Part shown: in pieces, positions 2,920 through 37,521 of the stretch
Numbering within the stretch: the first letter of the stretch is position 1
Layout of the letters: every line of letters starts with the position of its first letter
DNA from: Candidatus Nanoarchaeia archaeon
GTDB taxonomy: Archaea; Nanobdellota; Nanobdellia; Woesearchaeales; ARS49
Reading direction: 5' to 3'
Assembly: GCA_041488275.1 (NCBI GenBank)
Contig: JBGPOY010000003.1
Span: 14,092-78,091 of the forward strand
DNA length: 64,000 bases
Position numbers and translations under genes: made by a program
Notes under the pieces: generated by a model
The model's database searches: none
What the model was told of the DNA's origin: nothing
The model's input: the letters and a program-made list of their open reading frames with translations, nothing else

Positions 2920-2934
2920 ACAGGCGCGGGGCGT

Positions 2935-7142: not shown

Positions 7143-7270
7143 TCCCCTTGCCCGGATTTGAACCGGGAACCTTGCGGGTTCTGCTGACTCACTGTCATCC
7201 TTGGCGTTGCGCCACGTCGGTGAGTGACTCTCGTCTACAGCCGCACGCTCTGCCGTTGAGCTACAAGGGG
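7143..7270 (-). tRNA. tRNA-Tyr(GTA) with a ~53-nt intron 3' of the anticodon
   Basis: Acceptor CCCCTTG/CAAGGGG carries C1-G72, the archaeal Tyr identity pair. D arm GCTC..GAGC, anticodon stem TGCGG/CCGCA with loop CTGTAG interrupted, T arm CCCGG-TTCAAAT-CCGGG. No encoded CCA. Confidence 0.85.
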
Positions 7271-21270: not shown

Positions 21271-21320
21271 ACCATCACTCCTGATGAATAACAACACTAG
21301 TATTAGTGGGGGTAACGCAC

Positions 21321-22688: not shown

Positions 22689-22692
22689 GCAT

Positions 22693-22729
22693 CTCTTCTT
22701 TTTTCTTTTTCTTATTTCTCGTTTTTTAT
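22693..22729 (+). terminator. Oligo-T terminator tract
   Basis: cttcttttttctttttcttatttctcgttttttat lies directly after the stop codon. Confidence 0.55.
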
Positions 22730-22777
22730 CATACCAACGACGACTTGAATTCACTCCGTTGAGCGCTCCCGTTTCTT

Positions 22778-22840
22778 CCCAGGCAGTACGGCCGTAGGCG
22801 CCCGTCAAGAGTCGCACAACTAACGACAAACCTGCCTGCG
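22778..22840 (-). repeat. Copy E of the palindromic intergenic repeat family
   Basis: cccaggcagt ... gagtcgcacaac ... cctgcctgcg. This is the reverse orientation relative to copies A and B. Confidence 0.65.
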
Positions 22841-22938
22841 TCCCGGAAACGATTGCCCATCCTACGCATGACACTGCCGTGAAAACCACGGATTTCTCTC
22901 AGGAACGCATTTGAATCCTGTCCTGCGTCATTCAGGCA

Positions 22939-23679
22939 ATGAAAAACGCGGTGTGGGTGTTGGCGGCCTTGCTGGCGACGTCGTTCGTGACGGGCATCAC
23001 GGTTCCCTTGACGCTGGCCGTTGAGCCGGGACCGTTCTCCATCGTCAGCGCGAGCGTGAACATGCCGCGCGTGACGCTTGCAGCAGGGCAGGGCGCGGAC
23101 GTCACCGTGACGACGCAACTTTCGTCGCCCGGGACGGTCGTGATGACCGCGTTGAATACGGTGGCCGACTCGAACAGCACGACCGTCTTTACTGCCTCGT
23201 TCCACGTTCCGTTTACGTTTCCGTCCGGCAATTATACCGTGACGCTGACGGCAAGCAACGGCACGGACACCGTGACAGCCGCGCTGCCACTCGAGATTCT
23301 TCCCCTCACCGCGGTGGGCCTTGATGCGCCATCGCTTCTTCGGCATCTCACCCCGGGAAGCACCCTCGCCCTCGAGGGAGATGCCGATTTTTCCTCACCC
23401 AGCAAGCCGACGCTGCAGAACCTCGGCAACGTGCCGATTGATTTGACCATCAGCGCCGATACGCCCACAACAGGAAGCCAGAAAGTCGCGCTTTCCAACA
23501 TACTGCTGTCCGTGGACAACGCGACGTTCATCACGCTGAAAACGTCAACGCAAACGCTGAGCGTGAATCTGCTGCCTAATCAAACAATTCCTTTGTATTT
23601 GAGAATTACCGTACCGGACACGACATCGCCGGGGAACTACACCGGAGCCCTGCACGTGAGTGCGAAGCGCGCCGGATAG
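22939..23679 (+). CDS. Secreted hypothetical protein (signal peptide, beta-rich)
   Basis: N-terminal signal VWVLAALLATSFVTG. 246 aa. No catalytic motifs. Confidence 0.6.
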   Translation: MKNAVWVLAALLATSFVTGITVPLTLAVEPGPFSIVSASVNMPRVTLAAGQGADVTVTTQLSSPGTVVMTALNTVADSNSTTVFTASFHVPFTFPSGNYTVTLTASNGTDTVTAALPLEILPLTAVGLDAPSLLRHLTPGSTLALEGDADFSSPSKPTLQNLGNVPIDLTISADTPTTGSQKVALSNILLSVDNATFITLKTSTQTLSVNLLPNQTIPLYLRITVPDTTSPGNYTGALHVSAKRAG

Positions 23680-23684
23680 AAGAA

Positions 23685-23810
23685 TTACTTGCGGTTGCGG
23701 AAAGAAACCAGGCACGACTGCTTAATCCAGCATTGCGTGCATTGCTCAATCAGCTCGTGTTTCTTGCCGAAACACGGGTCGTTCACCAGCTTCAACATCT
23801 TCACTGCCAT
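23685..23810 (-). CDS. Possible 41-aa four-Cys mini-protein
   Basis: My own translation gives MAVKMLKLVNDPCFGKKHELIEQCTQCWIKQSCLVSFRNRK. It is below the ORF-track size cutoff and lies downstream of the 147-aa gene on the same strand. Confidence 0.25.
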   Translation of the reverse strand: MAVKMLKLVNDPCFGKKHELIEQCTQCWIKQSCLVSFRNRK

Positions 23811-23865
23811 GGTTCTCTTGTCGACGGGAGGCTATTTAAGTGTTTCGGCGTTGGGCACCAGAAAG

Positions 23866-24309
23866 CTATGCCGCGGTGCGGTACTCAGAATTCTTCGTGA
23901 AAACCTTGAACGGGTTCGGCGTGCCTTGCATCTCGAACGGCGAAGGAGCAACCACGTGTTTCGCGGCTTCGTTTTGGAACGTTTCGTCGACCGGCAGCAC
24001 CGGCTCCGCGTAGACAGTCGCGGGCGCGAGGCGGTGTTCCGCGGTTTCGTCGAACTTATTCGTGTCTTCGAAATGCGCGAACGAGCGCTTGATGCGAATT
24101 TCTCTCTGCGCTTCGCGGGCGGCGGGAATGTAGTCCATCAGCGCGCGGCGCAGGTAGGAACTTTCGTTGTCGAAGGTCAGCAATTTCTTTTCGCCGGTAG
24201 CTTTGACTTCAACATGCAACGATTTCAGAAATTCGGCGACGTCAGAGCGGCTGAGCGTTGATGTGTCCGAACGAACAATTGCGTCAATGGTTTTTGATTC
24301 CCCCGACAT
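23866..24309 (-). CDS. Hypothetical protein
   Basis: 147-aa ORF with ordinary composition and no motif recognised. Confidence 0.45.
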   Translation of the reverse strand: MSGESKTIDAIVRSDTSTLSRSDVAEFLKSLHVEVKATGEKKLLTFDNESSYLRRALMDYIPAAREAQREIRIKRSFAHFEDTNKFDETAEHRLAPATVYAEPVLPVDETFQNEAAKHVVAPSPFEMQGTPNPFKVFTKNSEYRTAA

Positions 24310-24397
24310 AGTTCTGACTCTCGCTGCGCCGTATTTAAGCTTTTATCTTTACGAAGCGTCACAAACATTTAAAACCGCAGACGCTCGCTTCCCTGCT

Positions 24398-24991
24398 ATG
24401 CGAACGTTCATCCTGCGCGCGCGGAAGTCCAGTACATCTCCCAACTTTAACCTCAGCGACCTGCCGAAGGCGGGAAGAATGGAGATTGTGGCGTCGTGCA
24501 TCGGCAACGCGCTGTGGGTGAGCAACAACGTGCGCAGCGACACCGTCATCCACGTCGTTCTGGAAGGACCGCCGACGCCGCCGAAGACCGTCACGTTCAC
24601 GGGCGGCAGCATCGAAGGCTTGAGCGTCGACGAGCGCGGCATCGCGTGGCTCGTGCAAAAGGCATTGCGGAAAGCCATCAAAATGGGCAGCAGCGAGACG
24701 AAGGACGTCGCGCCGGGCGTTATCGTGTCGTCCGCAAGCTTTGAGGAAATGGTCAAGCGTCACGCCGAGCACGGCACGGTGTACTATTTGCACCCGAAAG
24801 GAAAGGACATTCGCACTGCGGAGCTGCCGGAAGACGTCACGTTCGTGTTCGGCGACTACATCGGCATGCCGGAAAAATCAGAATCCTTTCTCGAAAAAAT
24901 CGGGGCGCAAAAACTCACGCTCGGACCCGTTACCGTTTTCGCGTCGCAGTGCGTCACGATTGTGCAGAATGAGTTGGACCGGAGAAATTAA
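24398..24991 (+). CDS. trmY: tRNA (pseudouridine54-N1)-methyltransferase, SPOUT family
   Basis: From the ATG at 24398, the sequence MRTFILRARKSSTSPNFNLSDLP...GPPTPPKTVTF...VYYLHPKGKDI...FVFGDYIGM is collinear with the Mj1640/TrmY family. TATA gtatttaag lies upstream. Confidence 0.8.
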   Translation: MRTFILRARKSSTSPNFNLSDLPKAGRMEIVASCIGNALWVSNNVRSDTVIHVVLEGPPTPPKTVTFTGGSIEGLSVDERGIAWLVQKALRKAIKMGSSETKDVAPGVIVSSASFEEMVKRHAEHGTVYYLHPKGKDIRTAELPEDVTFVFGDYIGMPEKSESFLEKIGAQKLTLGPVTVFASQCVTIVQNELDRRN

Positions 24992-25446
24992 CGCGCGGGC
25001 TTGAGTTCGGCGAGCCGCTTTTGGTAATCGCGAGTTGCCTGCCACACTTTCTTTTCTGCACGGAAATACGCTTTCAGCGTTTTTTCCAGTTCTCTTTCTT
25101 CAGGAGCAAGTTGGAATTGCGCGTGTTTTGCCGTGATCCGTTCATATTTAACGCCTGACGTACGGAGTAGTCCTTCAAGCGCACTGATTTCATCCTTGTT
25201 TCGTTCTGCAAAAGGAGTTGCCACGCTGACAAGTACGTATGGTTTCTGGTCCTTGAATCCGTAGAAGTGTTGCGCGCGAACCGTTGTTCCGCGCGACTCG
25301 GCTAGGCACATCGACTCGTGACCATAAATCTCTTTTCCATGCTTGTGCGGGCCGGTTGCGGACGTGACTTCGAGCGGCGCTTTGAGCGCGAGACGCACTT
25401 CTTTCTCCACAACTTCCTTCAGCCCTTTTTCCGTCGTAATCGTCAT
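24988..25446 (-). CDS. Hypothetical protein downstream of nreA
   Basis: 152-aa ORF on the same strand as dinB-nreA. No motif recognised. Confidence 0.45.
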   Translation of the reverse strand: MTITTEKGLKEVVEKEVRLALKAPLEVTSATGPHKHGKEIYGHESMCLAESRGTTVRAQHFYGFKDQKPYVLVSVATPFAERNKDEISALEGLLRTSGVKYERITAKHAQFQLAPEERELEKTLKAYFRAEKKVWQATRDYQKRLAELKPAR

Positions 25447-25493
25447 GCCGTTCCGATAGAGAACGCGCTATTAAATGATTTCTATCCTGCTGA

Positions 25494-26645
25494 CTAGAAT
25501 TCCCACAGCGTTTTCTGTTTGCCGATGGTGTTGACGAGCTGCATGCGGTCGGTGTGGTACTGGATGCCCATTTTGGTTTTGGTGTCGATGTAGTGCATGG
25601 CTTCGGAACGTGTTTTGAACGACAACGGTTCGGTTTGCATTGCTTTTCTCGTGAGTTCGCGGCACACCCAGACTCCCGTCGGAACGTAGCCGTTCGTGAC
25701 TTCGCGGAAGACGAATGCGCCGGCTTGCGCGTCCTGCTGGCGCAGATGGTCGGCGACGACCTGCCGCTGCGCGTAATAGCATCCGCCCATGCCGGAGTAC
25801 TGCTTGCGTCCGTAGTAGCTTTCGTAGTCGCTGAACGAGAAGGTCTTGTCACCGAGAATCTTGTCGAACACTTCGATGGCTTCGTACTGCCATTGCGACG
25901 GTGTCAGCATGACTGCGAAATAGTTGTTGAGTCCGGCGCTTTCGTACACGCGGTAGTCCTTGATGAGTTCGTTCTTGCGGACGTCCGCCATCGCGTCCTT
26001 GCCGATGATGTCATCGGTGGCCGTGATGCTCCAGCGCGTCGGGACAAGTTTGCGGTTTTTCGCCATGCCGAACGCGCCTGTGGAGAGTGCTTTCTGGATG
26101 GGCGTGAAGTCAAGTCCTTTCTGCGCGAGTTCGAGCACGGCGCCGCTCGCTTTCAGGTCGGTGTCGTAATGCGCCTTTTGCATGTCCTTCTGCCATTTTG
26201 CGGTTTCTGTTTCCAACTGCGTGAGTGTCGCGGACGGTCCGAACGGTGAGTGGTCTTCGTTGAATGTTACGCCTTGCGGGGCTTTCTCGAACTCGGCGTG
26301 CGTCATGAGCGAGGTTTTGGAGAGCGCTATTTCCTGCAATTGCTGGATGAATCTGCCGCCGACGTCCGTGACGGGAACGGGTTTCATTCCTCTGAGAAGC
26401 TGCATGCGAAAGTTGATGATGCTGTCGCGGTCGTACGTGCCGAGCCAGTGTTCCGGCGAGTCGTACGAAAAGCTGTCGGGCGCCTGCGCGAGCATCGGTC
26501 CGGCGAACACTTTCGGGTAGTTTGCCTGCCCGATAAACACCGACGGCGGAGAACTGCCCTCGAAGGAGTTGCCCTTGAGCGTGAGCGTCGGCATGTTGTA
26601 CTTGTTTGCCGTGATTTCCTTGAGGAACGCGTGTTTGCCGATCAT
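25494..26645 (-). CDS. nreA: Nre-family archaeal DNA repair protein with C-terminal PIP box
   Basis: 383 aa. PSVFIGQANYP, KLVPTRWSITATDD and GGCYYA motifs of the Nre family. The C-terminus QKTLWEF fits Qxx(L)xx(F). Overlaps the dinB stop by 4 nt. Confidence 0.75.
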   Translation of the reverse strand: MIGKHAFLKEITANKYNMPTLTLKGNSFEGSSPPSVFIGQANYPKVFAGPMLAQAPDSFSYDSPEHWLGTYDRDSIINFRMQLLRGMKPVPVTDVGGRFIQQLQEIALSKTSLMTHAEFEKAPQGVTFNEDHSPFGPSATLTQLETETAKWQKDMQKAHYDTDLKASGAVLELAQKGLDFTPIQKALSTGAFGMAKNRKLVPTRWSITATDDIIGKDAMADVRKNELIKDYRVYESAGLNNYFAVMLTPSQWQYEAIEVFDKILGDKTFSFSDYESYYGRKQYSGMGGCYYAQRQVVADHLRQQDAQAGAFVFREVTNGYVPTGVWVCRELTRKAMQTEPLSFKTRSEAMHYIDTKTKMGIQYHTDRMQLVNTIGKQKTLWEF

Positions 26646-27721
26646 ACCGCCTCGGGCTTGAAGTCGCGCACGCTGACGCCGACAAGCCGGATGTTTCTCG
26701 TGTCGGAAAGGAACGGCTGGAGCAGCGAGAACGCGGTGTTGCGCAGCGCTTCGATGTTGTCGAGGTGGTCGATGAGGTTGCGTTGTTTTGTTTTGGTGTC
26801 AAAGTCGTCGTAGCGGACTTTGACCGTGATGGTCTTGAAGCGGAGTTTTTCGGAGCGGATTTGCTCGTGGACGTCCTGAATCATCGCGTCGAGAAGTTCG
26901 CGGACGCGCTTCGTGTCTTTCGTGTCGTGCTCGAACGTGCGCTGGCGCCCGATGCTTTTCGCCTGCCATTCCTCGACGAGGTGCGTGCTTCCTTCGCCTC
27001 TTGCTTGCCAGTAAATGCTTTCGCCGAACGAGCCGAGCGTCTGGACGAGTTGCTCGCGCGTGAAGCGGTGCACGTCTTGCACTGTGTTGATGCCGAGCTG
27101 GTTCAGGATAGTCTTGGTTTTCGGTCCGACTCCGCGCAGCACGGAAATGTCCTGCGGCGCGAGGAATTCGATGGCTTTTTCCTGCGGAACAACCGTGAGC
27201 CCGTCGGGCTTTTGGAAGTCGGACGCGACTTTTGCGATAAGTTTGTTCGGACCGATACCGACGCTGCACGCCAATCCTTCCTTGGTCTTGATGTCATCCT
27301 TGATAGTTTGGGCGAGCGTCTTTGCGGCTGCGTAGCTTCCGGTCTGCGAAACGTCAAGGAACGCCTCGTCAATCGAGACTTGTTCGATGGCGTCGGTGTG
27401 CGTTCTGAGAATCTGCATGACTCGCTGTGAGGTTTCTGCGTAGAGTTTGTAGTTAACCGGCGTGAAGATGCCCTGCGGGCACAGCCGGTAGGCTTTGCTG
27501 ATGGGCATTGCCGAATGCACGCCGAACTTCCGCGCGGCGTAGTTGCACGTCGCGACGACGCCTCGTCCGCTGCCTGCCTTCGGGTCTGCCCCGACAATCA
27601 CGGGCTTGCCCGCGTACTCTGGGTGGTGGCGTTCCTCAACGGCTGCAAAGAACGCGTTTAAGTCCAGATGCAGAATGATGATTGGGGCAGGCTCCATACG
27701 AAGCGAAGAACAATCGGACAT
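26642..27721 (-). CDS. dinB: Y-family DNA polymerase IV (DinB/Dpo4)
   Basis: ILHLDLNAFFAAVE, SIDEAFLDV and HhH GVGPKT motifs. 359 aa. Confidence 0.9.
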   Translation of the reverse strand: MSDCSSLRMEPAPIIILHLDLNAFFAAVEERHHPEYAGKPVIVGADPKAGSGRGVVATCNYAARKFGVHSAMPISKAYRLCPQGIFTPVNYKLYAETSQRVMQILRTHTDAIEQVSIDEAFLDVSQTGSYAAAKTLAQTIKDDIKTKEGLACSVGIGPNKLIAKVASDFQKPDGLTVVPQEKAIEFLAPQDISVLRGVGPKTKTILNQLGINTVQDVHRFTREQLVQTLGSFGESIYWQARGEGSTHLVEEWQAKSIGRQRTFEHDTKDTKRVRELLDAMIQDVHEQIRSEKLRFKTITVKVRYDDFDTKTKQRNLIDHLDNIEALRNTAFSLLQPFLSDTRNIRLVGVSVRDFKPEAV

Positions 27722-27836
27722 TTAAAAGATTGCGAGCCCGTGTCCAGTGAAGCATTGGCTCGCGAGTGAAGTTCGTGAAGGAATAGACCGTCCGAGAAGG
27801 TAGGGGTTTTCAGACTTGTTTGAGCAGCAAAAAGTT

Positions 27837-28250
27837 CTAATAAATAATTCGGTTCTGATCATTTTTCAACGTCTTAATCAGGGATGCTGCCCTGACTATG
27901 GTGGGACATCTTTCACACCCGCCCAAAAGATGATGATAGACACCTTCTTTTACATCATTAAGGTGTGTTCTATCTTGCCAGTTCTGTTCAAGCAATGCTT
28001 TCAGTGCGTCATCACACTCCATGCTTTTTACGGGAGGGACGAGCGTGGCAAGATTTTTCGCAATAGCTTCCAATCCATCGAACTGCGTTCCACCGATGAC
28101 TCCACCGATGACAAGTTGTGGTCTTGGGGCAGGAATGTTGTCTTGGACGTACTGTACGTCAAGCTTTCTGCTCAAAGCATACGTGATAAGCCCTTGCACA
28201 ACATACGTTTCAAGCCCTTCAGGTCCAGGTCGAAAAATAATATTTGCCAT
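27837..28250 (-). CDS. Hypothetical protein in an AT-richer islet
   Basis: 137-aa ORF. The local base composition is visibly lower in GC than the flanks. No motif recognised. Confidence 0.45.
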   Translation of the reverse strand: MANIIFRPGPEGLETYVVQGLITYALSRKLDVQYVQDNIPAPRPQLVIGGVIGGTQFDGLEAIAKNLATLVPPVKSMECDDALKALLEQNWQDRTHLNDVKEGVYHHLLGGCERCPTIVRAASLIKTLKNDQNRIIY

Positions 28251-28339
28251 TTCAGCAAGCTATTTGCTTCATTTGTTTAATAATTTTCACCTTCTCAGCA
28301 AGTCTGAACAAAGCGTCGTCTCACTGCGCAGAATACGAG

Positions 28340-29152
28340 TTATTTATGCTTTTCAACCAATTTTCGCATGCGTTCGACGAAGTCTTCGGCCATGGCTTGG
28401 TACTTCGTGTACTCGTCGCCTTTGATTTCCTTGATTTCGTGGTGGATAATCATCTTGGACAGACTGTAGAGGTAGCGCATCACGTGTGTGTACTTGGGTT
28501 CGAGCTGGTGGGTTTTGACGAAGTGGGTTTCCAGCAGGTCGGCGACGTGGTCGGGGCTCGGCGGGATTTCGCCGGCGCTCATGAGCGCGGCGTGTGCCGA
28601 GTCGATGGCTGCCCAGTAGAGGTCGAGCGTGGCCTGCATCACGTGCCATTTGCTGTTGTGCAAGGTCGTGGGCGCGCGCATGTAGTAGTTCCAGATGCTT
28701 TCCTGTGACGGGCGGATTCTGCCCTGACGCAGCAGGAGTTGCAACGGGTCGAAGAAGCCCGTGTCGAGCAATGCGACGCCGTCGCGGAGAATGTTGATGC
28801 CGACGGGGTCGCCTGCGCGAACGTATTCCCAGAAGCTGGTGAGCCGGAGCGTCGTGACGTGAAAGCGAGGCGTAATGTCGGTCACGACCTTTTCCACGAT
28901 GACGCGGTAGGCGGTAATCATTTCGTGGCTGAGGTTGATGGTGACATCGTCCACGACGACGAGAATGTCGATGTCGCTCTTCGACGAACGTTTTTCGCGA
29001 GTTGCTGCGCTGCCGAACAGGACGACCGCCTTCAGAAAGTTGCCGAACTCCTTGTAGAGCCTTGTGGCAAACGTGCGCGCCAGCTCGCGGTCATCTTTGG
29101 AGTAAAGATTGATGGCTGGATTTTCTCGCGGGTAGATGTTGAATTCTGCCAT
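28340..29152 (-). CDS. Nucleotidyltransferase (Pol-beta/MNT fold) fused to a HEPN/KNTase-C-like helical domain
   Basis: GSAATREKRSSKSDIDILVVVDD (the GS...DxD NTase motif) at the N-terminus. The C-terminal half is helical. Confidence 0.7.
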   Translation of the reverse strand: MAEFNIYPRENPAINLYSKDDRELARTFATRLYKEFGNFLKAVVLFGSAATREKRSSKSDIDILVVVDDVTINLSHEMITAYRVIVEKVVTDITPRFHVTTLRLTSFWEYVRAGDPVGINILRDGVALLDTGFFDPLQLLLRQGRIRPSQESIWNYYMRAPTTLHNSKWHVMQATLDLYWAAIDSAHAALMSAGEIPPSPDHVADLLETHFVKTHQLEPKYTHVMRYLYSLSKMIIHHEIKEIKGDEYTKYQAMAEDFVERMRKLVEKHK

Positions 29153-29219
29153 TCCCAGCTCGCTAACGCCTTCGGCGCTTTAAGAACATTTATCACCATC
29201 GCAGAAGGGTAAAAACAGC

Positions 29220-31118
29220 TTATTCGAGCCCGAGTCCCGACCAGAACGGGCTGCCGCGGTATTCTTCAGACAACGCCATCTCGCCGAACAGGAAGTAGGG
29301 CGGATGGTTTTGGGCGAAGTAGGAGTGTTGGGCGGTGTTCCAGTCAATTCTCTTCCCGCCGGGAGCGGAAAGCCCGTAAATGCTGTGCCCGAAGAGCTTC
29401 CAGCCGCCGTAGAGAGCTTCGTACTGCTTCGCGGGGTCTTGCGCGCCGGGTTCGACGACTAAGTCGATGGGCTTGCCTTGCTTTTCGGCGGCGGCTTTCA
29501 TGAGTTGGACAAATTCCTTGATGGGCGCGCTGCCCATCCCCGGCGTCAGGTGTTCGTCTTGGTAGCCGAAGTTGTCGGAAATGTGCAGGTGCCCGACGAC
29601 CTTGTGCTTGTTGAGGTCGTCCATTTCGGACAGCAGCCACTTGTTGAAGCGCTTGTCCGAGTCAGCAATGCTTTCGCCGGGCTTGGACTGGAAGTACTTG
29701 CGCCAGACGTTCACGTGTCCGACGTCGACGGTCGCCTTGATGTGTTTCTCGGCTTCCGAATACGCAGCGTCGGGCGACATTCCTTTTTGGTCCTGCAACA
29801 GTTTTGCCATCCGCGAACGGGATTCGAGCACGAGCGTCTTGATTTCCTGCGGGTGCGAGCCGTACGTTTCGGGAAAAATGCCTTCGGGCGCGACGAACAA
29901 GTCCTTCTTGAGCTTCTTTTCCTTCTCGATGTTGTACGCGAACATACCCAGTTGAGCGATGGATTCTGCGCTCTTTTTCACGGCAAATTCGGTGATGGGT
30001 TTGAGCCGCTGGAATTGGTCGTCAAAGTCCTTGATTTGTTCCTGATAGGAAAGCGCGGACTGCTGGATGCGCGAGAGCTGGCGGTCGAGATGGTCTTTCG
30101 CAATCTTCAGTCGTTCTGTCGGGAGTCCTCGCTCGGGCATGACCAAGTCGGGAGGGACTCCTTCTTCGTGGAATTCCTTCATCAGGTGTTCCTTGTCCTT
30201 GCCCGCCATGTGCTCGAGCTTCTGCCACTTGGTCATCGCTTCTTCAACGCGCTTCTTCCTCTCAAGAAGACGGTCGTAGTCCTGCAAGTGCCAGAGGCGT
30301 TCGCCTTCCGCCTGCAGCGTGCGGGCGTTGACGAGTTCCTTGTAATAGATTTGTTCGGGCTTGAGCTTCTGGTCAGGATGCCCCGCGTTCCAGTCCTCGG
30401 TTTTCTTCTCGATGTCCTTCCATTCCAGCGTCTGGAGCTTGAACTTCTTGTTCTTGACATCGTATTCAGGAATCGGGTTGCCGAACGAGTCAGATTTCAG
30501 CGTGCCGTCGGGGTTTTTCTCGTACACGGGCGCGTTGATGGGGACGTTCTTGCGCACGGTCGTGACGACGTCGCCGGTGCGCTCGTCAACGAGGTACAGC
30601 GCGGCTTCGGTTTTTTCGTTCGGGTGCGCGAGGAACTCGACGTCGGCGCGTTTGTCCACGTCGAACAAAGGACGCGCGAATTCCTGCGCGTGAATCGTGA
30701 CGGCTCCGCCTTGCGCGGTGTCTGCCGCGAACTCGATGGCGCGCTTGATTTCCTGCATGTTTTGGACGCGCGAGTTCTCGTCAAAGCCGCGGTTGCCGAA
30801 GCCCGCGAAGCCTCCGGTTCCTACGGTAGCGTGCGTGCTCAGTTCGACCTTGTTGACTTTCGCGATTTCGCGAATCGTGCGGCGCTGTTCCGAGTCAATG
30901 CTTTCGGGAGTGATTTGCCCTGAGAAAATGCTGCCCTTGCCGGCTCCGAGAAAACCGATTTCGACTTTGCTCGCGCCCTCGCGGATTTTTGCGATGAGCG
31001 GCTGAACCGCGTCCTTGGTCGCGATGATGCTGATGCCGATGTCGCGGATGGGGATGAGCGCGTCTTCATTGTAGTCGCGGTCCATCGAGTGATAGTAGCC
31101 GCGGTCGGGACCCGCCAT
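29220..31118 (-). CDS. Xylose-isomerase/endonuclease-IV-like TIM-barrel protein interrupted by a ~250-aa helical insert
   Basis: N-terminal half: ELSTHA...GGAVTIHAQEF. C-terminal half: VDVGHVN...VGHLHISDNFGYQDEHLTPGMGSAPI...VVEPG. These are separated by a Lys/Glu-rich region. The ATG abuts the stop of the 203-aa ORF. Confidence 0.6.
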   Translation of the reverse strand: MAGPDRGYYHSMDRDYNEDALIPIRDIGISIIATKDAVQPLIAKIREGASKVEIGFLGAGKGSIFSGQITPESIDSEQRRTIREIAKVNKVELSTHATVGTGGFAGFGNRGFDENSRVQNMQEIKRAIEFAADTAQGGAVTIHAQEFARPLFDVDKRADVEFLAHPNEKTEAALYLVDERTGDVVTTVRKNVPINAPVYEKNPDGTLKSDSFGNPIPEYDVKNKKFKLQTLEWKDIEKKTEDWNAGHPDQKLKPEQIYYKELVNARTLQAEGERLWHLQDYDRLLERKKRVEEAMTKWQKLEHMAGKDKEHLMKEFHEEGVPPDLVMPERGLPTERLKIAKDHLDRQLSRIQQSALSYQEQIKDFDDQFQRLKPITEFAVKKSAESIAQLGMFAYNIEKEKKLKKDLFVAPEGIFPETYGSHPQEIKTLVLESRSRMAKLLQDQKGMSPDAAYSEAEKHIKATVDVGHVNVWRKYFQSKPGESIADSDKRFNKWLLSEMDDLNKHKVVGHLHISDNFGYQDEHLTPGMGSAPIKEFVQLMKAAAEKQGKPIDLVVEPGAQDPAKQYEALYGGWKLFGHSIYGLSAPGGKRIDWNTAQHSYFAQNHPPYFLFGEMALSEEYRGSPFWSGLGLE

Positions 31119-31730
31119 TTAGAACTCCTGCCGCTGTTTCGGGCGGTCTTCGTCGTCGAGCTTGCGCGTCTTGTACGCTTCGATTTGGTGAATTGCTTTT
31201 TCGGTGCGGGTCATGAGGTCTTTGGCTCGTTCGTCACGGATGTACGGCGCGGCTTTCTCGAATTCGTGCACGAGTTCGCCGTAGCGTTGCAATGATTCTG
31301 TTTCTGCGCGGGTCAACTGCTCGCCGGTCGCGACTTTGTCGCGCAGGTTGGCGATGCGGTCGTAGCCGTGGTGTTCGCGGAACTCGTACACGGCGGCGAC
31401 GATGTCGTGCCGGACGTAGTCCCGAGCGTGTTCGCGCGTTTCCGTACGAGGCGCGTTTTCGACGGCGGTTTCGAGCGTCTCTGCCTTTTTCGGGCGCCGG
31501 AACAATCGTTCGACTTCGACCGGGCGCGATTCGGGAACGCGGACGCGTTCGAGCGCTTCGAGTTCGCGATTGGTTTCGCGTTCCAGCGCGTCGAGCGAGG
31601 ACGTCGCCTTCTGCGCAGCCTGTTCGGCGTGCTTCAGCTCGTCGCTCACCCGCTTGCGGAGGGCGCGAATCTGGTCCAATCGCTCGTCGGGGGACGCTGC
31701 GCGGAGTGCCTGAATATCAATGGTGACCAT
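31119..31730 (-). CDS. Hypothetical coiled-coil protein coupled to the TIM-barrel gene
   Basis: 203 aa, charged and helical. Its stop is immediately followed by the next ATG. Confidence 0.5.
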   Translation of the reverse strand: MVTIDIQALRAASPDERLDQIRALRKRVSDELKHAEQAAQKATSSLDALERETNRELEALERVRVPESRPVEVERLFRRPKKAETLETAVENAPRTETREHARDYVRHDIVAAVYEFREHHGYDRIANLRDKVATGEQLTRAETESLQRYGELVHEFEKAAPYIRDERAKDLMTRTEKAIHQIEAYKTRKLDDEDRPKQRQEF

Positions 31731-31771
31731 TGATGTTCGTCAGTGAGTTTGAAGTAATAACCGTATCTACG

Positions 31772-31859
31772 CTCGCGTCGTGCCAGGCTCTCAGGCAGTT
31801 TTGTCGTAGGTGAAAGTTCTGACTCGCACAACCAACGACCATACTGCCGGGGACGCGAG
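31772..31859 (-). repeat. Copy C of the palindromic intergenic repeat family, with extended outer stem
   Basis: ccaggctctcaggcagt ... ttctgactcgcacaac ... actgccgggg, flanked by ctcgcgtc (31772) and gacgcgag (31852-31859), which are exact reverse complements. Confidence 0.7.
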
Positions 31860-31909
31860 ACACGGACATCATACAAGACTCCTTGCTTTTTCTATGTTTT
31901 GGGACAATT

Positions 31910-33508
31910 TCACCATGACTGCATGCCGTACGACTTCTTGAAGTTCTTGTAGTGGAGATAGCACAGTTTCTTGGAAATCTTGTTGACGGAATCGAACGCG
32001 CGCTTCATGTCGTCGCTGCCGGGCGCGCCTTTGGCAACGCCGGGCCAGAATGACTTCGCGATGTCGCCAGTGCCTCCGACCACGGCTCCGATGGCTTCGC
32101 GCGCGCCGGAAAAGACTGCAGCTGCGGGTTCGAAAAATCCTTCGAAGCTCGGGACGCGGGGCTTTTCCTCTTTCGGCGCGGGCTTGCCGAACGCTTCCTT
32201 GTCCGCCTCATCGAGAAATTTTTGCAGGTCTTCCTCGACGCCTTCGAGCGCGAATTTGAGTGTTTCGTTGATGCCTTTGAGCAGGTCGATGTCTTCTTGT
32301 TCTTTGAGGCGTTTGTACGCTGCGATGTGTTCTTCGCTCCACGCGTAGCTGCGCCACGTGACTTCTGCTTCGCCGACGTGAACCGGTCCTCGATGCTGGA
32401 AGTCTGACGTCGTGATGGACATGGACGGCTTGGTGCGGTACTGGAACGTCATGAGAATGCAGTTGTACGGCGCGCCCTTGCCGTACTTCTTGTCCGTGTC
32501 TTTCTCTGCCTTGCGCGCGAGGACTTCAATCTCGACGAGTGAGGTCTCGAACGCGCGAATCAGTTCCGCACGAGAATTACGCTCGATGTCGAGCCCGAGC
32601 CGTTTAACCGTGCGGAGGTACGGCTTGACCCATTGCATGTAGAGCTTGATGGTGCTGTAATACTGCCGCATGTACTTGAGCAGGTAGTTGCGACGCTGCA
32701 CGAGTTCGCGCTGCGAATGTTCCTTCCACGTGTAGTACTGCGTGAGCTTGCGCTTGAGCGTCGTTACGACCGAAGGGTTGAAGTCATTCTCGAGTTTGCC
32801 CACGCGCGCCCAGAACGTGTCGTCGCTTTCGCCGGGGAACTTGCGCGTCTGGAAGAAGAGGTCAGGCAGCACCGCGAAGCTGAGCTGTTGCGAAAGTCCG
32901 AAGACGCTTGCCGGGCTTTTCGCGCCGCCTTCCACGAGGTCGACGTACATTCCTTTCAACGTGATTTCGGCGCTGTCGGCGTTGGCGGGCTTCTTACCTT
33001 CTTCTGCCTTGATTCCGTCGGGGTCTTCCCACGGCGCGAACTTGCCCGAGCTATTGTAGTAGTAGCCGAGCCTCTCGCGGATGGCGCGCAACTCGCGGAC
33101 GTAGACGGGAATGCTGCGCACCATGTCGTGGATGATTCTGAGAAACTGCATGACTCTATCCTGCGTGAGCCCGAGCCGTTGCTGTCCTGCTCCGAACAGG
33201 CTGGATGATTCGGACGCGCTGAAGACGTCCGAGATTTTGTCCACCAACGGATAGCCGATTTGGCGGAATTGCGTGAGACTCCAGAAATAAATGCCTTCGA
33301 TGCTCGCGTTCGGTCCTTCGAGAATGACGCGGAACCGGTTGTTCGGCAGGGGGTACGCGCCCTGCGGCGGAATGCTGCCGTCCTTTGCGGGAGCGTAGGA
33401 AACGAACTGGTCTTTGGTGACCTCAGCGGAGTCCCATTTCTTGAAGACGTCCTTGGGGTCGCGCGGCTTGTCCGCTGCCGGTTTTCCCTCTTTTTTTGGC
33501 GCTGCCAT
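31910..33508 (-). CDS. Large hypothetical protein (532 aa), no recognisable domain
   Basis: Long ORF with ordinary composition. Basic AKP-rich N-terminus. Its own TATA (ctttaaatacc) overlaps the yhbY stop. Confidence 0.6.
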   Translation of the reverse strand: MAAPKKEGKPAADKPRDPKDVFKKWDSAEVTKDQFVSYAPAKDGSIPPQGAYPLPNNRFRVILEGPNASIEGIYFWSLTQFRQIGYPLVDKISDVFSASESSSLFGAGQQRLGLTQDRVMQFLRIIHDMVRSIPVYVRELRAIRERLGYYYNSSGKFAPWEDPDGIKAEEGKKPANADSAEITLKGMYVDLVEGGAKSPASVFGLSQQLSFAVLPDLFFQTRKFPGESDDTFWARVGKLENDFNPSVVTTLKRKLTQYYTWKEHSQRELVQRRNYLLKYMRQYYSTIKLYMQWVKPYLRTVKRLGLDIERNSRAELIRAFETSLVEIEVLARKAEKDTDKKYGKGAPYNCILMTFQYRTKPSMSITTSDFQHRGPVHVGEAEVTWRSYAWSEEHIAAYKRLKEQEDIDLLKGINETLKFALEGVEEDLQKFLDEADKEAFGKPAPKEEKPRVPSFEGFFEPAAAVFSGAREAIGAVVGGTGDIAKSFWPGVAKGAPGSDDMKRAFDSVNKISKKLCYLHYKNFKKSYGMQSW

Positions 33509-33537
33509 CGCTGAATACTCAGCGTCGTTGTTGGTAT

Positions 33538-33771
33538 TTAAAGCTTCGTGGTGCGCTTCAGAACGACGACAAACCCGACTTTGCTCGTCACGACCGCGCC
33601 CACTTTCGACGCGAGCCCCTCTACGAGCTCGCGGCGCTGTTCAGGCTCGCCCGCGCCGGGAAGGAGCTTCACGCGCACTTCGCCGTGGCGCTTCAGCTGT
33701 TTCTGGATTTCGGCGACCATGTTCTCAGTCAGGCCTGCCTTTCCGACGTTAATCGTGGGGAGCATAGTCAT
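33538..33771 (-). CDS. YhbY/CRM-domain RNA-binding protein
   Basis: 77 aa. VGKAGLTENMVAEIQKQLKRHGEVRVKL matches the CRS1/YhbY signature. Confidence 0.8.
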   Translation of the reverse strand: MTMLPTINVGKAGLTENMVAEIQKQLKRHGEVRVKLLPGAGEPEQRRELVEGLASKVGAVVTSKVGFVVVLKRTTKL

Positions 33772-33824
33772 GAATGGAGTTTTGACCCGTTTTTAAGCGT
33801 ATGCCTCGGAAACAGGCGTTCGTC

Positions 33825-33960
33825 GTGACCATGAGGCACGGCCGTCGTTCACCGTGCCCAGGGGCGTTGGAAGAGGGTTGTGCAAGTCAGAACGACAACC
33901 TACGACAATACTGCCTGAGAGCCTGGTACGACAGCCAAACGGCCTGTGCCTCATGGTTAC
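33825..33960 (+). repeat. Copy B of the palindromic repeat family, nested inside 21-bp terminal inverted repeats (MITE-like)
   Basis: Outer TIRs are gtgaccatgaggcacggccgt (33825-33845) and acggcctgtgcctcatggttac (33939-33960). The inner core is 33857-33926, with gttgtgcaagtcagaa at 33877-33892. Confidence 0.75.
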
Positions 33961-33965
33961 GGGGA

Positions 33966-34655
33966 TTAGATGATGTACCAAATCATCCAGATGCCGAGGG
34001 CGAGGAGCACGACGCCGGTGATGAGCCGCATCGCTTCCTTGTGCTTGTCGCGCCACTTGTGCATCTCTTTCGAGCTGACGCCCTTGTACATCGCGTAGAC
34101 GATGATGGCGAGCGGCAACACGAAGATGACGTTGTACAACAGCAACTGCGAGACGTTGCGCACGGTGAAGCCCGTGATGGACATGATGGCGAGCACGGCA
34201 AGATACACTGCGCCCGTGCACGGGAGCTCGACGAGCGCGACGAAGATGCCCAGCCCGAACGCCGTAAACAAGTTGTCCGAGATTTTTCGGACGTACATCT
34301 TGATTCTGACCGCGTCGTCAGGCGCGATTTGCAGGGAGAACCATTTCCCGTAAAAGAAATAGTCCTTGATTTCTAACAGTCCTGCGATGATAATCAGCGC
34401 CGCAATGATGATGTACGCGTAGACGCTGAACCTGCCCAGACTGCGGATGACGGGCAGCAACAAAAGCCCTGCGGAAAGATACGTCACGTAGACGCCGAAA
34501 ATATAGACGCCTCCGTGGATGAGCAGCTTGTTGGGCTGCTTGAACCGCTTGGTGAGATACGCGAGCAGGAAAATCAGGACGCCAAAGGCGCACGGGTTGA
34601 TGCTGTCGACGAGCGCGGCTCCGACGAGAATGGGGAGGCTGATTTCGGCGACCAT
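33966..34655 (-). CDS. ccdA: CcdA/DsbD-family transmembrane thiol-disulfide electron transporter
   Basis: Polytopic membrane protein with the two family Cys motifs: DSINPCAFGV in TM1 and ELPCTGAVY in a later helix. Confidence 0.8.
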   Translation of the reverse strand: MVAEISLPILVGAALVDSINPCAFGVLIFLLAYLTKRFKQPNKLLIHGGVYIFGVYVTYLSAGLLLLPVIRSLGRFSVYAYIIIAALIIIAGLLEIKDYFFYGKWFSLQIAPDDAVRIKMYVRKISDNLFTAFGLGIFVALVELPCTGAVYLAVLAIMSITGFTVRNVSQLLLYNVIFVLPLAIIVYAMYKGVSSKEMHKWRDKHKEAMRLITGVVLLALGIWMIWYII

Positions 34656-34656
34656 G

Positions 34657-34722
34657 TCAGCAGAACTCGCACGATTGTTTCTTGGGTTCCTTGGTTGATT
34701 TTGTCTTTTTCTTTGCAGCCAT
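34657..34722 (-). CDS. Possible 21-aa mini-ORF ending CEFC
   Basis: My own translation gives MAAKKKTKSTKEPKKQSCEFC. A GGTGA sits 5 nt upstream of the ATG, and the stop lies 1 nt before the ccdA ATG. Confidence 0.25.
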   Translation of the reverse strand: MAAKKKTKSTKEPKKQSCEFC

Positions 34723-34732
34723 CAGATTCACC

Positions 34733-35263
34733 TCATCCGAACGTCAGTTGAATAACATCGTGGTCGCTCCACACGTAGTCGGTATACTCCGTGGAAGCGT
34801 TGCCGTTGACCGTCATCGTGAGCTTGCCGGGGACGCCGTTGCACAAATCGCCGTTGCACTTGTCTGCGATGCACGTGCTCGTGAAGCGCACGCCCTGCAC
34901 CTTCATGAACTCGCCCAACTGCATCTTCGTTGTGTCGGTGACGCGCCCCGCGACCGGGTCGTAGGGAAGCGTGACGTGCAAGTGAATCTTGTTGCGCTCC
35001 TTGTGCGTGTGCGGTTCGTCGAGCGGGCCGGTTTCGAGCGGGAGCTTGTACGCGCTGCCGCAAATCGTGATGGGAACGTCCGCGTGGACGTGCACCGAGA
35101 GCTTGCAGTTCTGGTTGTTCGCGTCGCAGGTCATGATGCCGCCTTCGGCGTTCTCGCCGTAGAACTGCTGGAGACTGTACGCGAAGTAACCGATGATGGC
35201 GATGACAACGGCACCTATGAGAAACTGAAACAGGTGATTCTTGCGCGGGGTCTTGCGGGCCAT
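34733..35263 (-). CDS. Membrane-anchored Cys-rich extracytoplasmic protein, hypothetical
   Basis: N-terminal TM anchor LFQFLIGAVVIAIIGYFAY followed by several Cys. TATA gtttatata lies about 30 nt upstream. Confidence 0.55.
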   Translation of the reverse strand: MARKTPRKNHLFQFLIGAVVIAIIGYFAYSLQQFYGENAEGGIMTCDANNQNCKLSVHVHADVPITICGSAYKLPLETGPLDEPHTHKERNKIHLHVTLPYDPVAGRVTDTTKMQLGEFMKVQGVRFTSTCIADKCNGDLCNGVPGKLTMTVNGNASTEYTDYVWSDHDVIQLTFG

Positions 35264-35304
35264 CTCTTTTTCAATTCGTGTTCTGCGCGCGTGCTATATA
35301 AACG

Positions 35305-36090
35305 TTACGCGCCCGCCACTTTGACGTCTCCTGGAGGAAGGGCGCGGATAATCTCGTCAAGGTCTCCCCCGCCAAGGTGTTTTTGGACTTTCTTGGCGGC
35401 GTCGCTCGGTTTGTCGCTGCCGTGCGTCACAAGCATGACCTTGGCGCAGTGCTTCCTTACCGCTCGTTCCGGACCGCCCATGATTCTTCCATCAGGCAGC
35501 AACCCGATGGCAAGTTTCAGCGACACACGCAGCGTTTGGCGCTTGCCGCGCACCATAAAGCTGCCCTTGCTCATGAATTCGCCGGACTGCGCTTCCTTGC
35601 TCACTTGCTCAGGAGTGACGCAGTACGCGTCCATCACCGTGACGCCAAGCTTCCAGCCGCGGGAATAGCTTGCCGTCGCTTGACTTGCCTCTTCCACCGT
35701 TGCCGGCTGAGGCGGGTTGCCTTCGGTCTTGATGACGAAGAACGGACTGCCGGGAGCTTCAGTATGACAAAGAAGGTCGTGCGGCTCGGCGTGTTTTTTG
35801 ACAATCACTTCGTTCGAGCCGGCATCCCTGCCGCCGACGCACAAGTAACCTTCGCTCGAGAGAAACCAGCGGAACTTTTCGTACCAGAGCCGCGACTTTG
35901 TTTCTTTGATGGTGACGGTCTTTGTGGGCGCAGAAGCGGAAGGGCGGGATTCGCGCGCGGCGAGCTGCGCCTTGAATTTCGCGACGGCAACGCGCGCGCC
36001 TTTGGCTTTGTTCTTCAGTTTTTTGGCGTGCTCGAAATACTCTGCCGCATTCTGCTCAACAGTCTTGCGCAAATCGAGGACGATACGCAT
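35305..36090 (-). CDS. Stand-alone NFACT-R (DUF814)-type protein related to the RqcH/NEMF C-terminal part
   Basis: WYEKFRWFLSSEGYLCVGGRDAGSNEVIVKKH...H.E.PGSPFFVIK is the NFACT-R signature. At 261 aa it lacks the N-terminal NFACT-N domain. Confidence 0.7.
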   Translation of the reverse strand: MRIVLDLRKTVEQNAAEYFEHAKKLKNKAKGARVAVAKFKAQLAARESRPSASAPTKTVTIKETKSRLWYEKFRWFLSSEGYLCVGGRDAGSNEVIVKKHAEPHDLLCHTEAPGSPFFVIKTEGNPPQPATVEEASQATASYSRGWKLGVTVMDAYCVTPEQVSKEAQSGEFMSKGSFMVRGKRQTLRVSLKLAIGLLPDGRIMGGPERAVRKHCAKVMLVTHGSDKPSDAAKKVQKHLGGGDLDEIIRALPPGDVKVAGA

Positions 36091-36091
36091 A

Positions 36092-36574
36092 TCAGCAGGC
36101 GCGGACGTCCTCAGTGAGAATCGCTTTGTCCGGACAGAACACTTGCCCCGCGTCGGTGTTCAGCACGGGAGTAAGCTTGATTTGCTGCGGCGTGCCGACG
36201 CCGGCGATGGAGAACATCGTCTTGAGCGCGCCCGCGGGAGCGATCGGCTGCTTCAGAATGTTGGGTGTCAGCGCGATGTTGTCCGTACCGACGACTCTCG
36301 CTTGCAACGCGTCGATGCGCGCGCCCGGACCGTTGTCGAGCGAAAGTTCCACGTTGGCGCCGTTGACGCACAATTGCGGAACGCCCTTGACGTTGATGAG
36401 CTGGAGGTCGACGGATTCACAGACGTTGGAATTCACTTCCGGCGTGCCTTGCACGAACGTCGCTTGCTGTTCGACATAGTCCTGTCCGTAGCTCATCACG
36501 ACCGCGCCGAGCGCGATGGAGAACCCAATCAGGAGCAGTGTCGCGAACAGGGGAGAAATGCCTCGTTTGTTCAT
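36092..36574 (-). CDS. Archaeal type IV pilin-like protein (class III signal peptide)
   Basis: MNKRGISPLFATLLLIGFSIALGAVV is a canonical prepilin N-terminus. SD gggaggg and TATA ctttatata lie upstream. Confidence 0.8.
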   Translation of the reverse strand: MNKRGISPLFATLLLIGFSIALGAVVMSYGQDYVEQQATFVQGTPEVNSNVCESVDLQLINVKGVPQLCVNGANVELSLDNGPGARIDALQARVVGTDNIALTPNILKQPIAPAGALKTMFSIAGVGTPQQIKLTPVLNTDAGQVFCPDKAILTEDVRAC

Positions 36575-36662
36575 GGTCGCCTCTTTTCCCTCCCTGTTGA
36601 AATCGTGCTATATAAAGATTGCTTCAGGTAGAGTGTAGCGTCTGAGCTCTCCACACGTTCAG

Positions 36663-36764
36663 CCCAGGCAGGATTGCCGTAGGTAGTAGTTTTGAACCGC
36701 GCAACGAACGATCAGACTGCCTGTGCCTCATGGTGACGACGAACCAAACTGCCTGAGAGCCTGG
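36663..36764 (-). repeat. Copy D (composite) of the palindromic repeat family in a divergent promoter region
   Basis: cccaggcagg...gcgcaac (reverse core), then actgcctgtgcctcatggtgac (matches the outer TIR of copy B), then actgcctgagagcctgg. Confidence 0.65.
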
Positions 36765-36819
36765 CACGGCGACACATTTGAGGCAACATTTATAACCCTC
36801 GACAAAACAAATCGGAGTG

Positions 36820-37521
36820 ATGGCTGCCGACGAGCTTCCTGAGGAATTGCGCAATCTCAGTCCTGAGCAGCTGCGCGACCTGCAGAAAAAGCAGTGCGTC
36901 TTCTGCCGCATCGCTGAAGGGGCAGTCCAAGCAAGAAAAATCTACGAAGATGACAGCTTCCTCGCGGTGCTGGACATCAATCCCGCGACGCCCGGTCACA
37001 TTCTTGTGCTGCCGAAGGAGCACTACAGCATTCTTCCGCAGTTTCCCGAAGAACAAATCGCGCATCTTGGGATGCTGGCGAAGCATCTTGCGCAGGCCGC
37101 GCTGCCCGCGTTGAAAGCGCACGGCATCTCCATCGTCGCTGCGAACGGGCTTGCCGCAGGACAGCGCGCGAGCCACTTCCTGCTCCATATCATCCCGCGC
37201 ATGGAAGACGACGGCGCCGGAATCACGCTTCCCGAAAACAAAATCTCTGGCGCGGACTTGCAAAAACTGCGCGTTCAGCTGCAGCCGTTTGTCAACCGCG
37301 CGCTCGGCAAGGACGTCGAGCAGGAACCGACACTTTCTCCTGCGGAACTTCCGCTGCTCGAAAAGAAATCAGCACAGAAAGAAGAGAAGCCCGCGAAAAA
37401 GACCGAACCGAAAACCGAGAAACGCACCGAACAGAAAGAATCCGACTCCAAAAAGGCATCCAAGCCCAAAAAATCCAACCTTGACGAGATTGCGGACTTC
37501 CTCGCAGGTGACAGGAAATGA
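36820..37521 (+). CDS. HIT-superfamily protein with non-canonical HxLxH triad and Lys/Glu-rich tail
   Basis: CVFCRI...TPGHILVLPKEH...AAGQRASHFLLHIIPR. The middle His of HxHxH is Leu. Confidence 0.75.
   Translation: MAADELPEELRNLSPEQLRDLQKKQCVFCRIAEGAVQARKIYEDDSFLAVLDINPATPGHILVLPKEHYSILPQFPEEQIAHLGMLAKHLAQAALPALKAHGISIVAANGLAAGQRASHFLLHIIPRMEDDGAGITLPENKISGADLQKLRVQLQPFVNRALGKDVEQEPTLSPAELPLLEKKSAQKEEKPAKKTEPKTEKRTEQKESDSKKASKPKKSNLDEIADFLAGDRK

Follow-up and report, generated by a model that had tools for sequence, protein, structure and literature searches.

Short palindromic repeats scattered between the genes of an archaeon raise the question of whether they belong to one family and, if they do, whether that family is best understood as mobile DNA, as regulatory hairpins, as protein-binding sites or as RNA genes. 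We addressed this question in a 64 kb stretch of DNA, here called the window, from an uncultivated Woesearchaeota (DPANN) archaeon with a GC content of 57%. Its genes include those for split RpoB and RpoA subunits, for EF-2, EF-1alpha and Nre, and for one tRNA with an intron, and DNA identical to the window is present on the metagenome contigs JGI 3300052990 and Logan SRR29604914. Among cellular genomes, those of DPANN archaea rank with the smallest and most compact, and repeats would be expected to be purged from them. A preliminary description of the window had reported five copies of a palindromic element, which it took to be either a MITE/REP-like family or an orientation-independent hairpin motif.

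Five copies of one modular family in the window

When the five claimed copies were made into a profile HMM, nhmmer returned exactly those five, with E-values from 2e-17 to 9e-21, and no sixth; the matches that followed were these loci read on the other strand, and the remainder had E > 0.1. A degenerate pattern equivalent to 24 bases matched four copies in the window, against 0.00 expected from shuffles. Pairwise identity among the five was 57–81% over 63 core columns, and the aligned copies share the blocks GTTG(T/C)GC(A/G)…TCAGAA, CCTACG(A/G)C and CTGCCTG(A/G)G. The homology thus exceeds the short GGCAG/CTGCC strings and spans GTTGTGCRAGTCAGAA and CCTACGRC, so that the five are copies of one family with extended similarity, as had been proposed.

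Copy A lies at 142–213 on the plus strand (E = 2e-17), with the 5′ end CCCCGGGGAG and the 3′ end CTGCCTGGG, and copy E at 22772–22847 on the minus strand (E = 4e-19). Copy C, also on the minus strand, occupies 31772–31859 (HMM match 31789–31859, E = 9e-21) and has a long 3′ end, CTGCCTGAGAGCCTGGCACG. The core of copy B, together with its long 3′ end, extends over 33851–33932 on the plus strand (HMM match 33851–33920, E = 1e-19), and the core of copy D over 36656–36727 on the minus strand (E = 2e-19). The copies divide into two subtypes, A and B, with GGGG(A/C)G at the 5′ end and TTGGAAG, versus C, D and E. Because GGGG(A/C)G replaces GGCAG at their 5′ ends, the termini of A and B are less complementary than had been noted, and the claim of mutually complementary ends stands to a lesser degree than it was made.

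The finer structure seen earlier was recovered. Copy B is enclosed by an outer inverted repeat of 16 nt with 94% complementarity, whose left arm, CGTGACCATGAGGCAC, lies at 33824–33839 (plus strand) and whose right arm, GTGCCTCATGGTTACG in plus-strand letters, lies at 33946–33961 (minus strand). This outer-arm module has three matches in the window, against 0.08 expected. The third is the recurrence of the B arm that had been noticed at copy D, a solo module, GTCACCATGAGGCAC, abutting the core at 36723–36737 on the minus strand. Copy C carries the described stem extension, an 8 bp inverted repeat, CTCGCGTC / GACGCGAG, at 31772–31779 and 31852–31859. The long 3′ end CTGCCTGAGAGCCTGGYACG was found in three places: in copy B, in copy C and, at 36749–36768, in a solo 3′-end fragment, D′ (…AAACTGCCTGAGAGCCTGGCACG), which runs from 36738 to 36768 on the plus strand. 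Since D′ is oriented opposite to copy D, the locus is a mosaic of core, outer-arm module and inverted fragment, in agreement with its description as composite.

All five copies fall within the first 37 kb of the window. The 27 kb with the EF-2, EF-1alpha, SUF and tRNA genes contains none.

Genomic context of the copies

The copies are placed between the stop codon of the upstream gene and the TATA box that follows, and most gaps between genes in the window have no copy. The preliminary description placed every copy in an intergenic gap, which holds except for copy A, the only one that touches a coding region. Copy A separates an AAA ATPase gene (229–1371, minus strand) from a radical-SAM gene; in the open reading frame as read it overlaps the 5′ coding end of the latter. 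From copy A to the CxxxCxxC motif of the radical-SAM protein no ATG, GTG or TTG is in frame, which places the start codon of this gene within the element or before it. In radical-SAM orthologues the N-terminal linker at this position is non-conserved and of varying length. The corresponding site is found at 3994–4160 in L003, 9943–10013 in L111 and about 10060–10100 in L112 (L numbers refer to loci of our collection). Both automatic and naive gene calls push start codons into the elements, as in the call at L003 3994–5031.

Copy E occupies a tandem gap, antisense to the plus-strand genes at 21306–22688 and 22939–23679, and the T-rich tract upstream of it already resembles an archaeal terminator. 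Copy C is in the sense orientation relative to its minus-strand flanking genes. Copy B is antisense to its minus-strand neighbours, an SfLAP-like gene (33966–34655) and YhbY (33538–33771), and copy D lies in a divergent gap between a 160-aa gene (36092–36574, minus strand) and a HIT gene (36817–37521, plus strand). The open reading frames between pairs of copies are all housekeeping genes. Copies in tandem gaps were sense in 9 cases and antisense in 7, with 6 more in convergent and 3 in divergent gaps. Thus the family shows no strand bias, and the two orientations relative to genes reported for the window recur in all three kinds of gap.

The gene at 31910–33508 (minus strand) encodes a 532-aa protein with no Pfam domain and more than 500 homologues, of which those with names are nearly all from Woesearchaeota or Nanoarchaeota MAGs. 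It adjoins YhbY in every locus that was fetched. The product is a conserved DPANN-specific protein with no assigned function.

Distribution and site occupancy in related species

Additional copies beyond the window, for which a census had been proposed, were readily found, and the family is present in at least five related species. Syntenic loci of relatives, obtained via the 532-aa protein and via the radical-SAM protein, contain 6 copies in 21.5 kb (L007), 7 in 16 kb (L008) and 5 in 16 kb (L009). Another 21 kb of the L008 genome, from a second region, contains 2 copies. L112, which represents a further species, has about 3 with weak matches, and L108 and L110 have decayed remnants only. Five copies in 64 kb had been called a high density; that count is correct, yet the window species has the lowest density seen in the clade, far below L007, L008 and L009.

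A pattern for the L009-type arm picked out 20 contigs of a single JGI soil metagenome (Ga0307473), and these contigs contain 36 copies. Several of these copies are at contig ends, which indicates that the family is genome-wide there and breaks assemblies. Contigs that terminate inside copies include L089 at its start and L091, L102 and L103 at their ends.

Outside this clade the family was not seen. No copy was detected in about 76 loci of other Woesearchaeota species (L010–L087), and there was no match in L005, a relative with 45% GC. Patterns made from the window copies had no match in the genome-contig or metagenome-contig collections, the window's genome being apparently absent from both. 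Three family-specific patterns found nothing in IMG/VR, so a viral or plasmid origin is unsupported.

Occupancy of individual sites is partly conserved and partly variable. Site D, the gap between the HIT gene and the 160-aa gene, contains an element or a remnant in six species, including L007, L008, L009, L108 and L110. Site A, from the AAA ATPase to the radical-SAM gene, is occupied in three (the window, L111 and L112). Both sites are filled in every species examined. The copy at 4398–4479 of L008 has no counterpart in L007, a sister species with about 85% DNA identity, where the flanking genes overlap. The gap between a 632-aa gene and an NTP-transferase gene is filled in L007, L008 and L009 and empty in the window. 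Insertion polymorphism, suggested earlier as a check, thus exists between sister species, although either loss or gain could account for the differences in occupancy. The flanking genes are housekeeping genes (FtsZ, GAPDH, Kae1, PGI, SepF, PTH2 and ribosomal proteins). The presence of elements at sites A and D throughout the species examined is as compatible with long-term retention, and possibly function, as with selfish spread.

Two further observations concern these loci. A correspondence between the arm of copy A and that at L089:5708 through orthology of their sites was considered and rejected, as tblastn finds neither the AAA ATPase nor the radical-SAM protein on L089. Between the peptidase A24 and HIT genes, L007 (3726–5414) and L008 (about 2700–4355) encode a protein of 562 aa whose DnaA_N and Bac_DnaA domains are of the bacterial type, a gene that is missing at this place in the window.

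Unit architecture and sequence evolution

In the relatives the unit is a nested palindrome of 110–120 nt with exchangeable arms. Two inverted arms enclose a variable interior of about 45 nt, and their inner termini, CCCNGGCAG-NTTTG ... CAAAN-CTGCCNGGG, are conserved across species. In the Ga0307473 species the full unit measures about 115–120 nt, and its order is CGTCGTTGAGT, an arm of type S or L, CCCNGGCAG-TTTTG, the ~45-nt interior, CAAAN-CTGCCTGGG and AACGGCACTCACCAACACTCAACGACG. The arm types are interchangeable, with S-L, L-L and other combinations observed. The L009 type has the outer repeats GTCGTTGAGT/ACTCAACGAC. In L007 and L008 a second, similar CCCCNGC / GGGAAC motif lies about 15 nt further outward in the arms, giving four motifs per unit. 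Each arm has GGCAG-TTTT on its own strand and most have CGTC at the outer end. Over the whole family, units measure 70–120 nt and contain no open reading frame of their own.

Some units in the relatives contain an additional module of about 55 nt, M2, which consists of two hairpins, CTTGAAGG…CCTTCAAG and CAGAGGAC…GTCCTCTG. Its insertion point is invariably CAAACCT^GCYNGGG of the main element's terminus. M2 was found at L008 8750 and 8943, L095 3267, L097 3244 and L101 6107; it is nearly identical in two species, with compensatory changes in both hairpins, and it is absent from the window. The B and D mosaics of the window are the local version of this modularity of arms and modules.

Termini and interiors evolve differently. 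Between orthologous copies of L007 and L008, the termini are 70–100% identical, the non-coding flanks 63–70% and the interiors 55–59%, so that the interiors diverge at least as fast as the flanking non-coding DNA. The type of interior is species-specific, HMM scores being at most 30 bits in other species versus 47–114 at home. Interiors are flipped relative to their arms in L088:1939 and L103:2969, with alignment scores of 22–27 flipped versus 4–6 unflipped. In the corresponding comparison of L007 with L008, site x scored 23 flipped versus 10 unflipped, and site C scored 16 flipped versus 10, with an identity of 0.70 flipped versus 0.75 unflipped. Site D scored 18 in the same orientation versus 6 flipped. 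On these alignments one or two of the orthologous L007/L008 pairs may have flipped in situ, and interior flips are clear only within the L009-type family.

The copies are not young. Within the L009-type set the median identity is 69% and the highest 92%, and identity in the window is 57–81%, values that do not establish recent transposition. The termini are conserved among species whose proteins are only about 60% identical, which argues for some constraint, and this constraint could be host-derived.

Alternatively, the CCCNGGCAG / CTGCCNGGG pairs might be binding sites of a host DNA-binding protein, such as a nucleoid, boundary or regulatory factor, the palindrome reflecting binding by a dimer and not mobility. 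The termini are the most conserved part of the element across species, the units of L007 and L008 carry four copies of the motif, and orientation is unbiased. However, the two sites lie some 45–55 nt apart and the variable interior between them still keeps its hairpin potential, while swapped arms, nested insertions and fragments on their own are what one typically sees in mobile or recombining repeats, not in operators. No candidate protein was identified. We consider this explanation improbable.

Orientation, folding and covariation

We examined whether the repeats bear the marks of selection as DNA or as RNA. In the terminal stem of 14–15 bp, scored over 35 copies, 399 of 525 cells were Watson-Crick pairs, with 22 G·T and 16 A·C. 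An RNA selected on one strand would be expected to show a bias of G·U over A·C; that bias is absent, and there is no sign of selection on an RNA strand. RNAalifold, run on 22 copies, kept only the invariant 8-bp terminal stem and gave no covariation in the main element, so the covariation in the stems for which the preliminary description had proposed a test did not appear. The core hairpins of the window copies are no more stable than shuffles (z from −0.2 to −1.2), and only copy B with its outer repeat stands out among them (z = −5.3 as RNA, −3.9 as DNA). Some full units in the relatives fold as single long hairpins, with z from −2.4 to −5.0.

Searches of Rfam gave only tRNAs in the window at gathering score, nothing in window positions 22000–37500 at E ≤ 5, and nothing in five related loci at E ≤ 1. 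One of the window matches, at 7143–7270 on the minus strand (128 nt, 55 bits), was unreported by ARAGORN; it is presumably an archaeal, intron-containing tRNA.

One alternative is that the repeats are a family of small structured RNA genes. Their intergenic position and the hairpin potential of some copies would suit an sRNA. Against this, Rfam gave no match even at E ≤ 5, the copies have no strand bias relative to genes, G·T is not in excess of A·C, the interiors flip and diverge faster than the flanks, and reading the GC-rich units by eye revealed no archaeal promoter motif within them. An sRNA family is therefore a very improbable explanation, and membership in a known Rfam family was rejected, there being no covariance-model match in the window other than tRNAs and none in the five related loci.

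The same data can be read in terms of cis-acting hairpins that the host selects irrespective of orientation, as transcript-end or read-through barriers or for mRNA stability. They would punctuate a very compact genome, with copies kept alike by concerted evolution and not by selfish spread. Several features speak for such hairpins: the position of copies from the upstream stop codon to the downstream TATA box, the filling of sites A and D across all species examined, the long hairpins formed by full units in the relatives, the compensatory changes in both M2 hairpins, and GGCAG-TTTT on the own strand of each arm. Yet the window cores fold like shuffles and the main element is without covariation. 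Divergent promoter gaps are also occupied (copy D), and copy E follows a tract that could already terminate transcription. Most window gaps are empty, the five copies all being in the first 37 kb, and related species L108 and L110 have decayed remnants only. On balance we think selection for cis-acting hairpins unlikely, although less so than binding sites for a host protein. What keeps both explanations alive is that sites A and D are retained and that the termini stay conserved over deep divergence.

Evidence for mobility and tests of element class

Neither Pfam searches of about 50 window and flanking proteins nor precomputed gene calls contained a transposase, integrase or nuclease, and there was no RAYT (Y1 HUH) gene in the 16–21 kb pieces of the relatives' genomes. 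The cognate transposase that the preliminary description had recommended searching for was thus not among the genes examined. The occupied site at L008 4398 and the empty site in L007 do not align cleanly, and the flanks of L009-type copies, anchored by regular expressions, contain no consistent direct repeat.

Other properties are those expected of MITEs and REPINs. The elements are small, non-coding, dispersed and multi-copy (five in the window and 5–7 per 16–21 kb in the relatives), and they have terminal inverted repeats, namely the ~14 bp inner-terminus stem and the outer repeats. Occupancy is polymorphic in L008 versus L007 and in the relatives versus the window. As in REPINs, inverted doublets can form one long hairpin, two arms flanking a spacer. 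The proposal of a MITE/REP-like family is upheld by this combination of dispersal, restriction to one clade, multiple copies, conserved terminal inverted repeats, placement in both orientations and variable occupancy, together with the absence of an Rfam match and of covariation outside the terminal stem.

Two other classes were considered and rejected. The 7-mers GTTGAGT/ACTCAAC had suggested integron attC sites. Such sites have the form RYYYAAC…GTTRRRY, lie in a single orientation after cassette ORFs and have an integrase nearby. In our elements the order of the motifs is the opposite, GTTGAGT…ACTCAAC, orientations are mixed, the neighbours are core genes and there is no integrase. A CRISPR array, in which direct repeats alternate at regular spacing with unique spacers, does not fit copies that are 2–22 kb apart, in mixed orientation and between genes.

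Interpretation

The reading we favour, with appreciable room for doubt, is that these elements are a chromosomal, non-coding family of palindromic repeats that acts at the level of DNA, is of the REP/REPIN/ERIC/MITE kind, and belongs to one high-GC clade of Woesearchaeota. The family would be maintained as DNA by a trans-acting protein that recognises the conserved termini or the hairpin and that copies units, or seeds them anew, at the small number of places that tolerate them, from the end of one gene to the promoter of the next. Recombination between arms and between copies would flip interiors, swap arms and build mosaics such as B and D. Effects on the host would be secondary, such as hairpins in read-through transcripts or a new start codon for the radical-SAM gene at copy A. 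The data establish family membership, distribution, architecture, the lack of strand bias and variable occupancy; a mobilising enzyme, a mechanism of transposition and the neutrality of the insertions are what we infer under this scheme.

A more specific version is that the family is an archaeal equivalent of the REPIN-RAYT system, in which a long-lived, vertically inherited population of repeats would depend on a single-copy host protein that recognises the CCCNGGCAG hairpin termini, with some copies co-opted by the host. We offer this only tentatively, as a doubtful extension of the favoured reading. If it were true, co-option could include the supply of a start codon at site A and of hairpins at gene boundaries.

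A repeat family of this kind in DPANN genomes matters for two reasons. It makes up about 4% of the sequence in some regions (L008) and persists across species that are only about 60% identical in protein, which makes it a convenient system for asking how REP-like repeats survive in streamlined genomes and whether archaea have a RAYT-like maintenance enzyme. In practical terms, the elements break metagenome assemblies and mislead gene callers, which extend open reading frames into the copies.

Comparison with known repeat systems

Among prokaryotic MITEs (Correia elements and those of Sulfolobus and haloarchaea), the likeness lies in small, non-coding, dispersed and mostly intergenic elements with inverted termini and variable occupancy. 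In contrast to MITEs, no target-site duplication could be defined, a parent insertion sequence sharing the ends did not turn up among the genes examined, and the copies are old (57–92% identity), with some sites conserved across species. A census of MITEs already lists one 'Woesearchaea genome' at 105 MITEs/Mb (PMC11602168), which puts the general phenomenon on record.

The woesearchaeal family resembles ERIC in size, conservation across species, variable copy number, insertion in either orientation and internal indel variants, but its sequence is unrelated and its host belongs to another domain. ERIC elements, or IRUs, are imperfect palindromes of about 120 nt in enterobacteria and are thought to be mostly transcribed. 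Rickettsia palindromic elements (RPE) occur in a reduced, host-dependent genome and can insert in frame into coding regions. Our family is likewise palindromic, with copy A reaching into the N-terminal coding end of the radical-SAM gene; however, only 1 of the 5 window copies touches a coding region, and there is no sequence relationship.

The closest functional analogue is the REP/REPIN/BIME group. Like REPs, the woesearchaeal elements are short, GC-rich, imperfect palindromes, present in high copy number in the gaps between core genes and in both orientations (PMC3733652, PMC3116915), and they are inherited vertically, with lineage-specific sequence types. Like REPINs, they form inverted pairs that can fold into one long hairpin, and like BIMEs they are mosaics of exchangeable modules. 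The CGTC at most outer arm ends recalls the CGTC-tagged REP superfamily, a resemblance of a 4-mer only. REPs are imperfect palindromes of 20–40 nt tagged at one end by GTAG or CGTC. REP stem-loops have stems of 8–9 bp and loops of 4–5 nt (PMC3733652), whereas the woesearchaeal arms are not themselves stem-loops and the unit is 70–120 nt long with an interior of about 45 nt. In the REPIN-RAYT system the repeats flank a single-copy RAYT gene; no RAYT gene was seen in the 16–21 kb genome pieces. The survey of REPs lists bacterial phyla only (PMC3733652), while the host here is an archaeon, and we found no published description of this woesearchaeal family.
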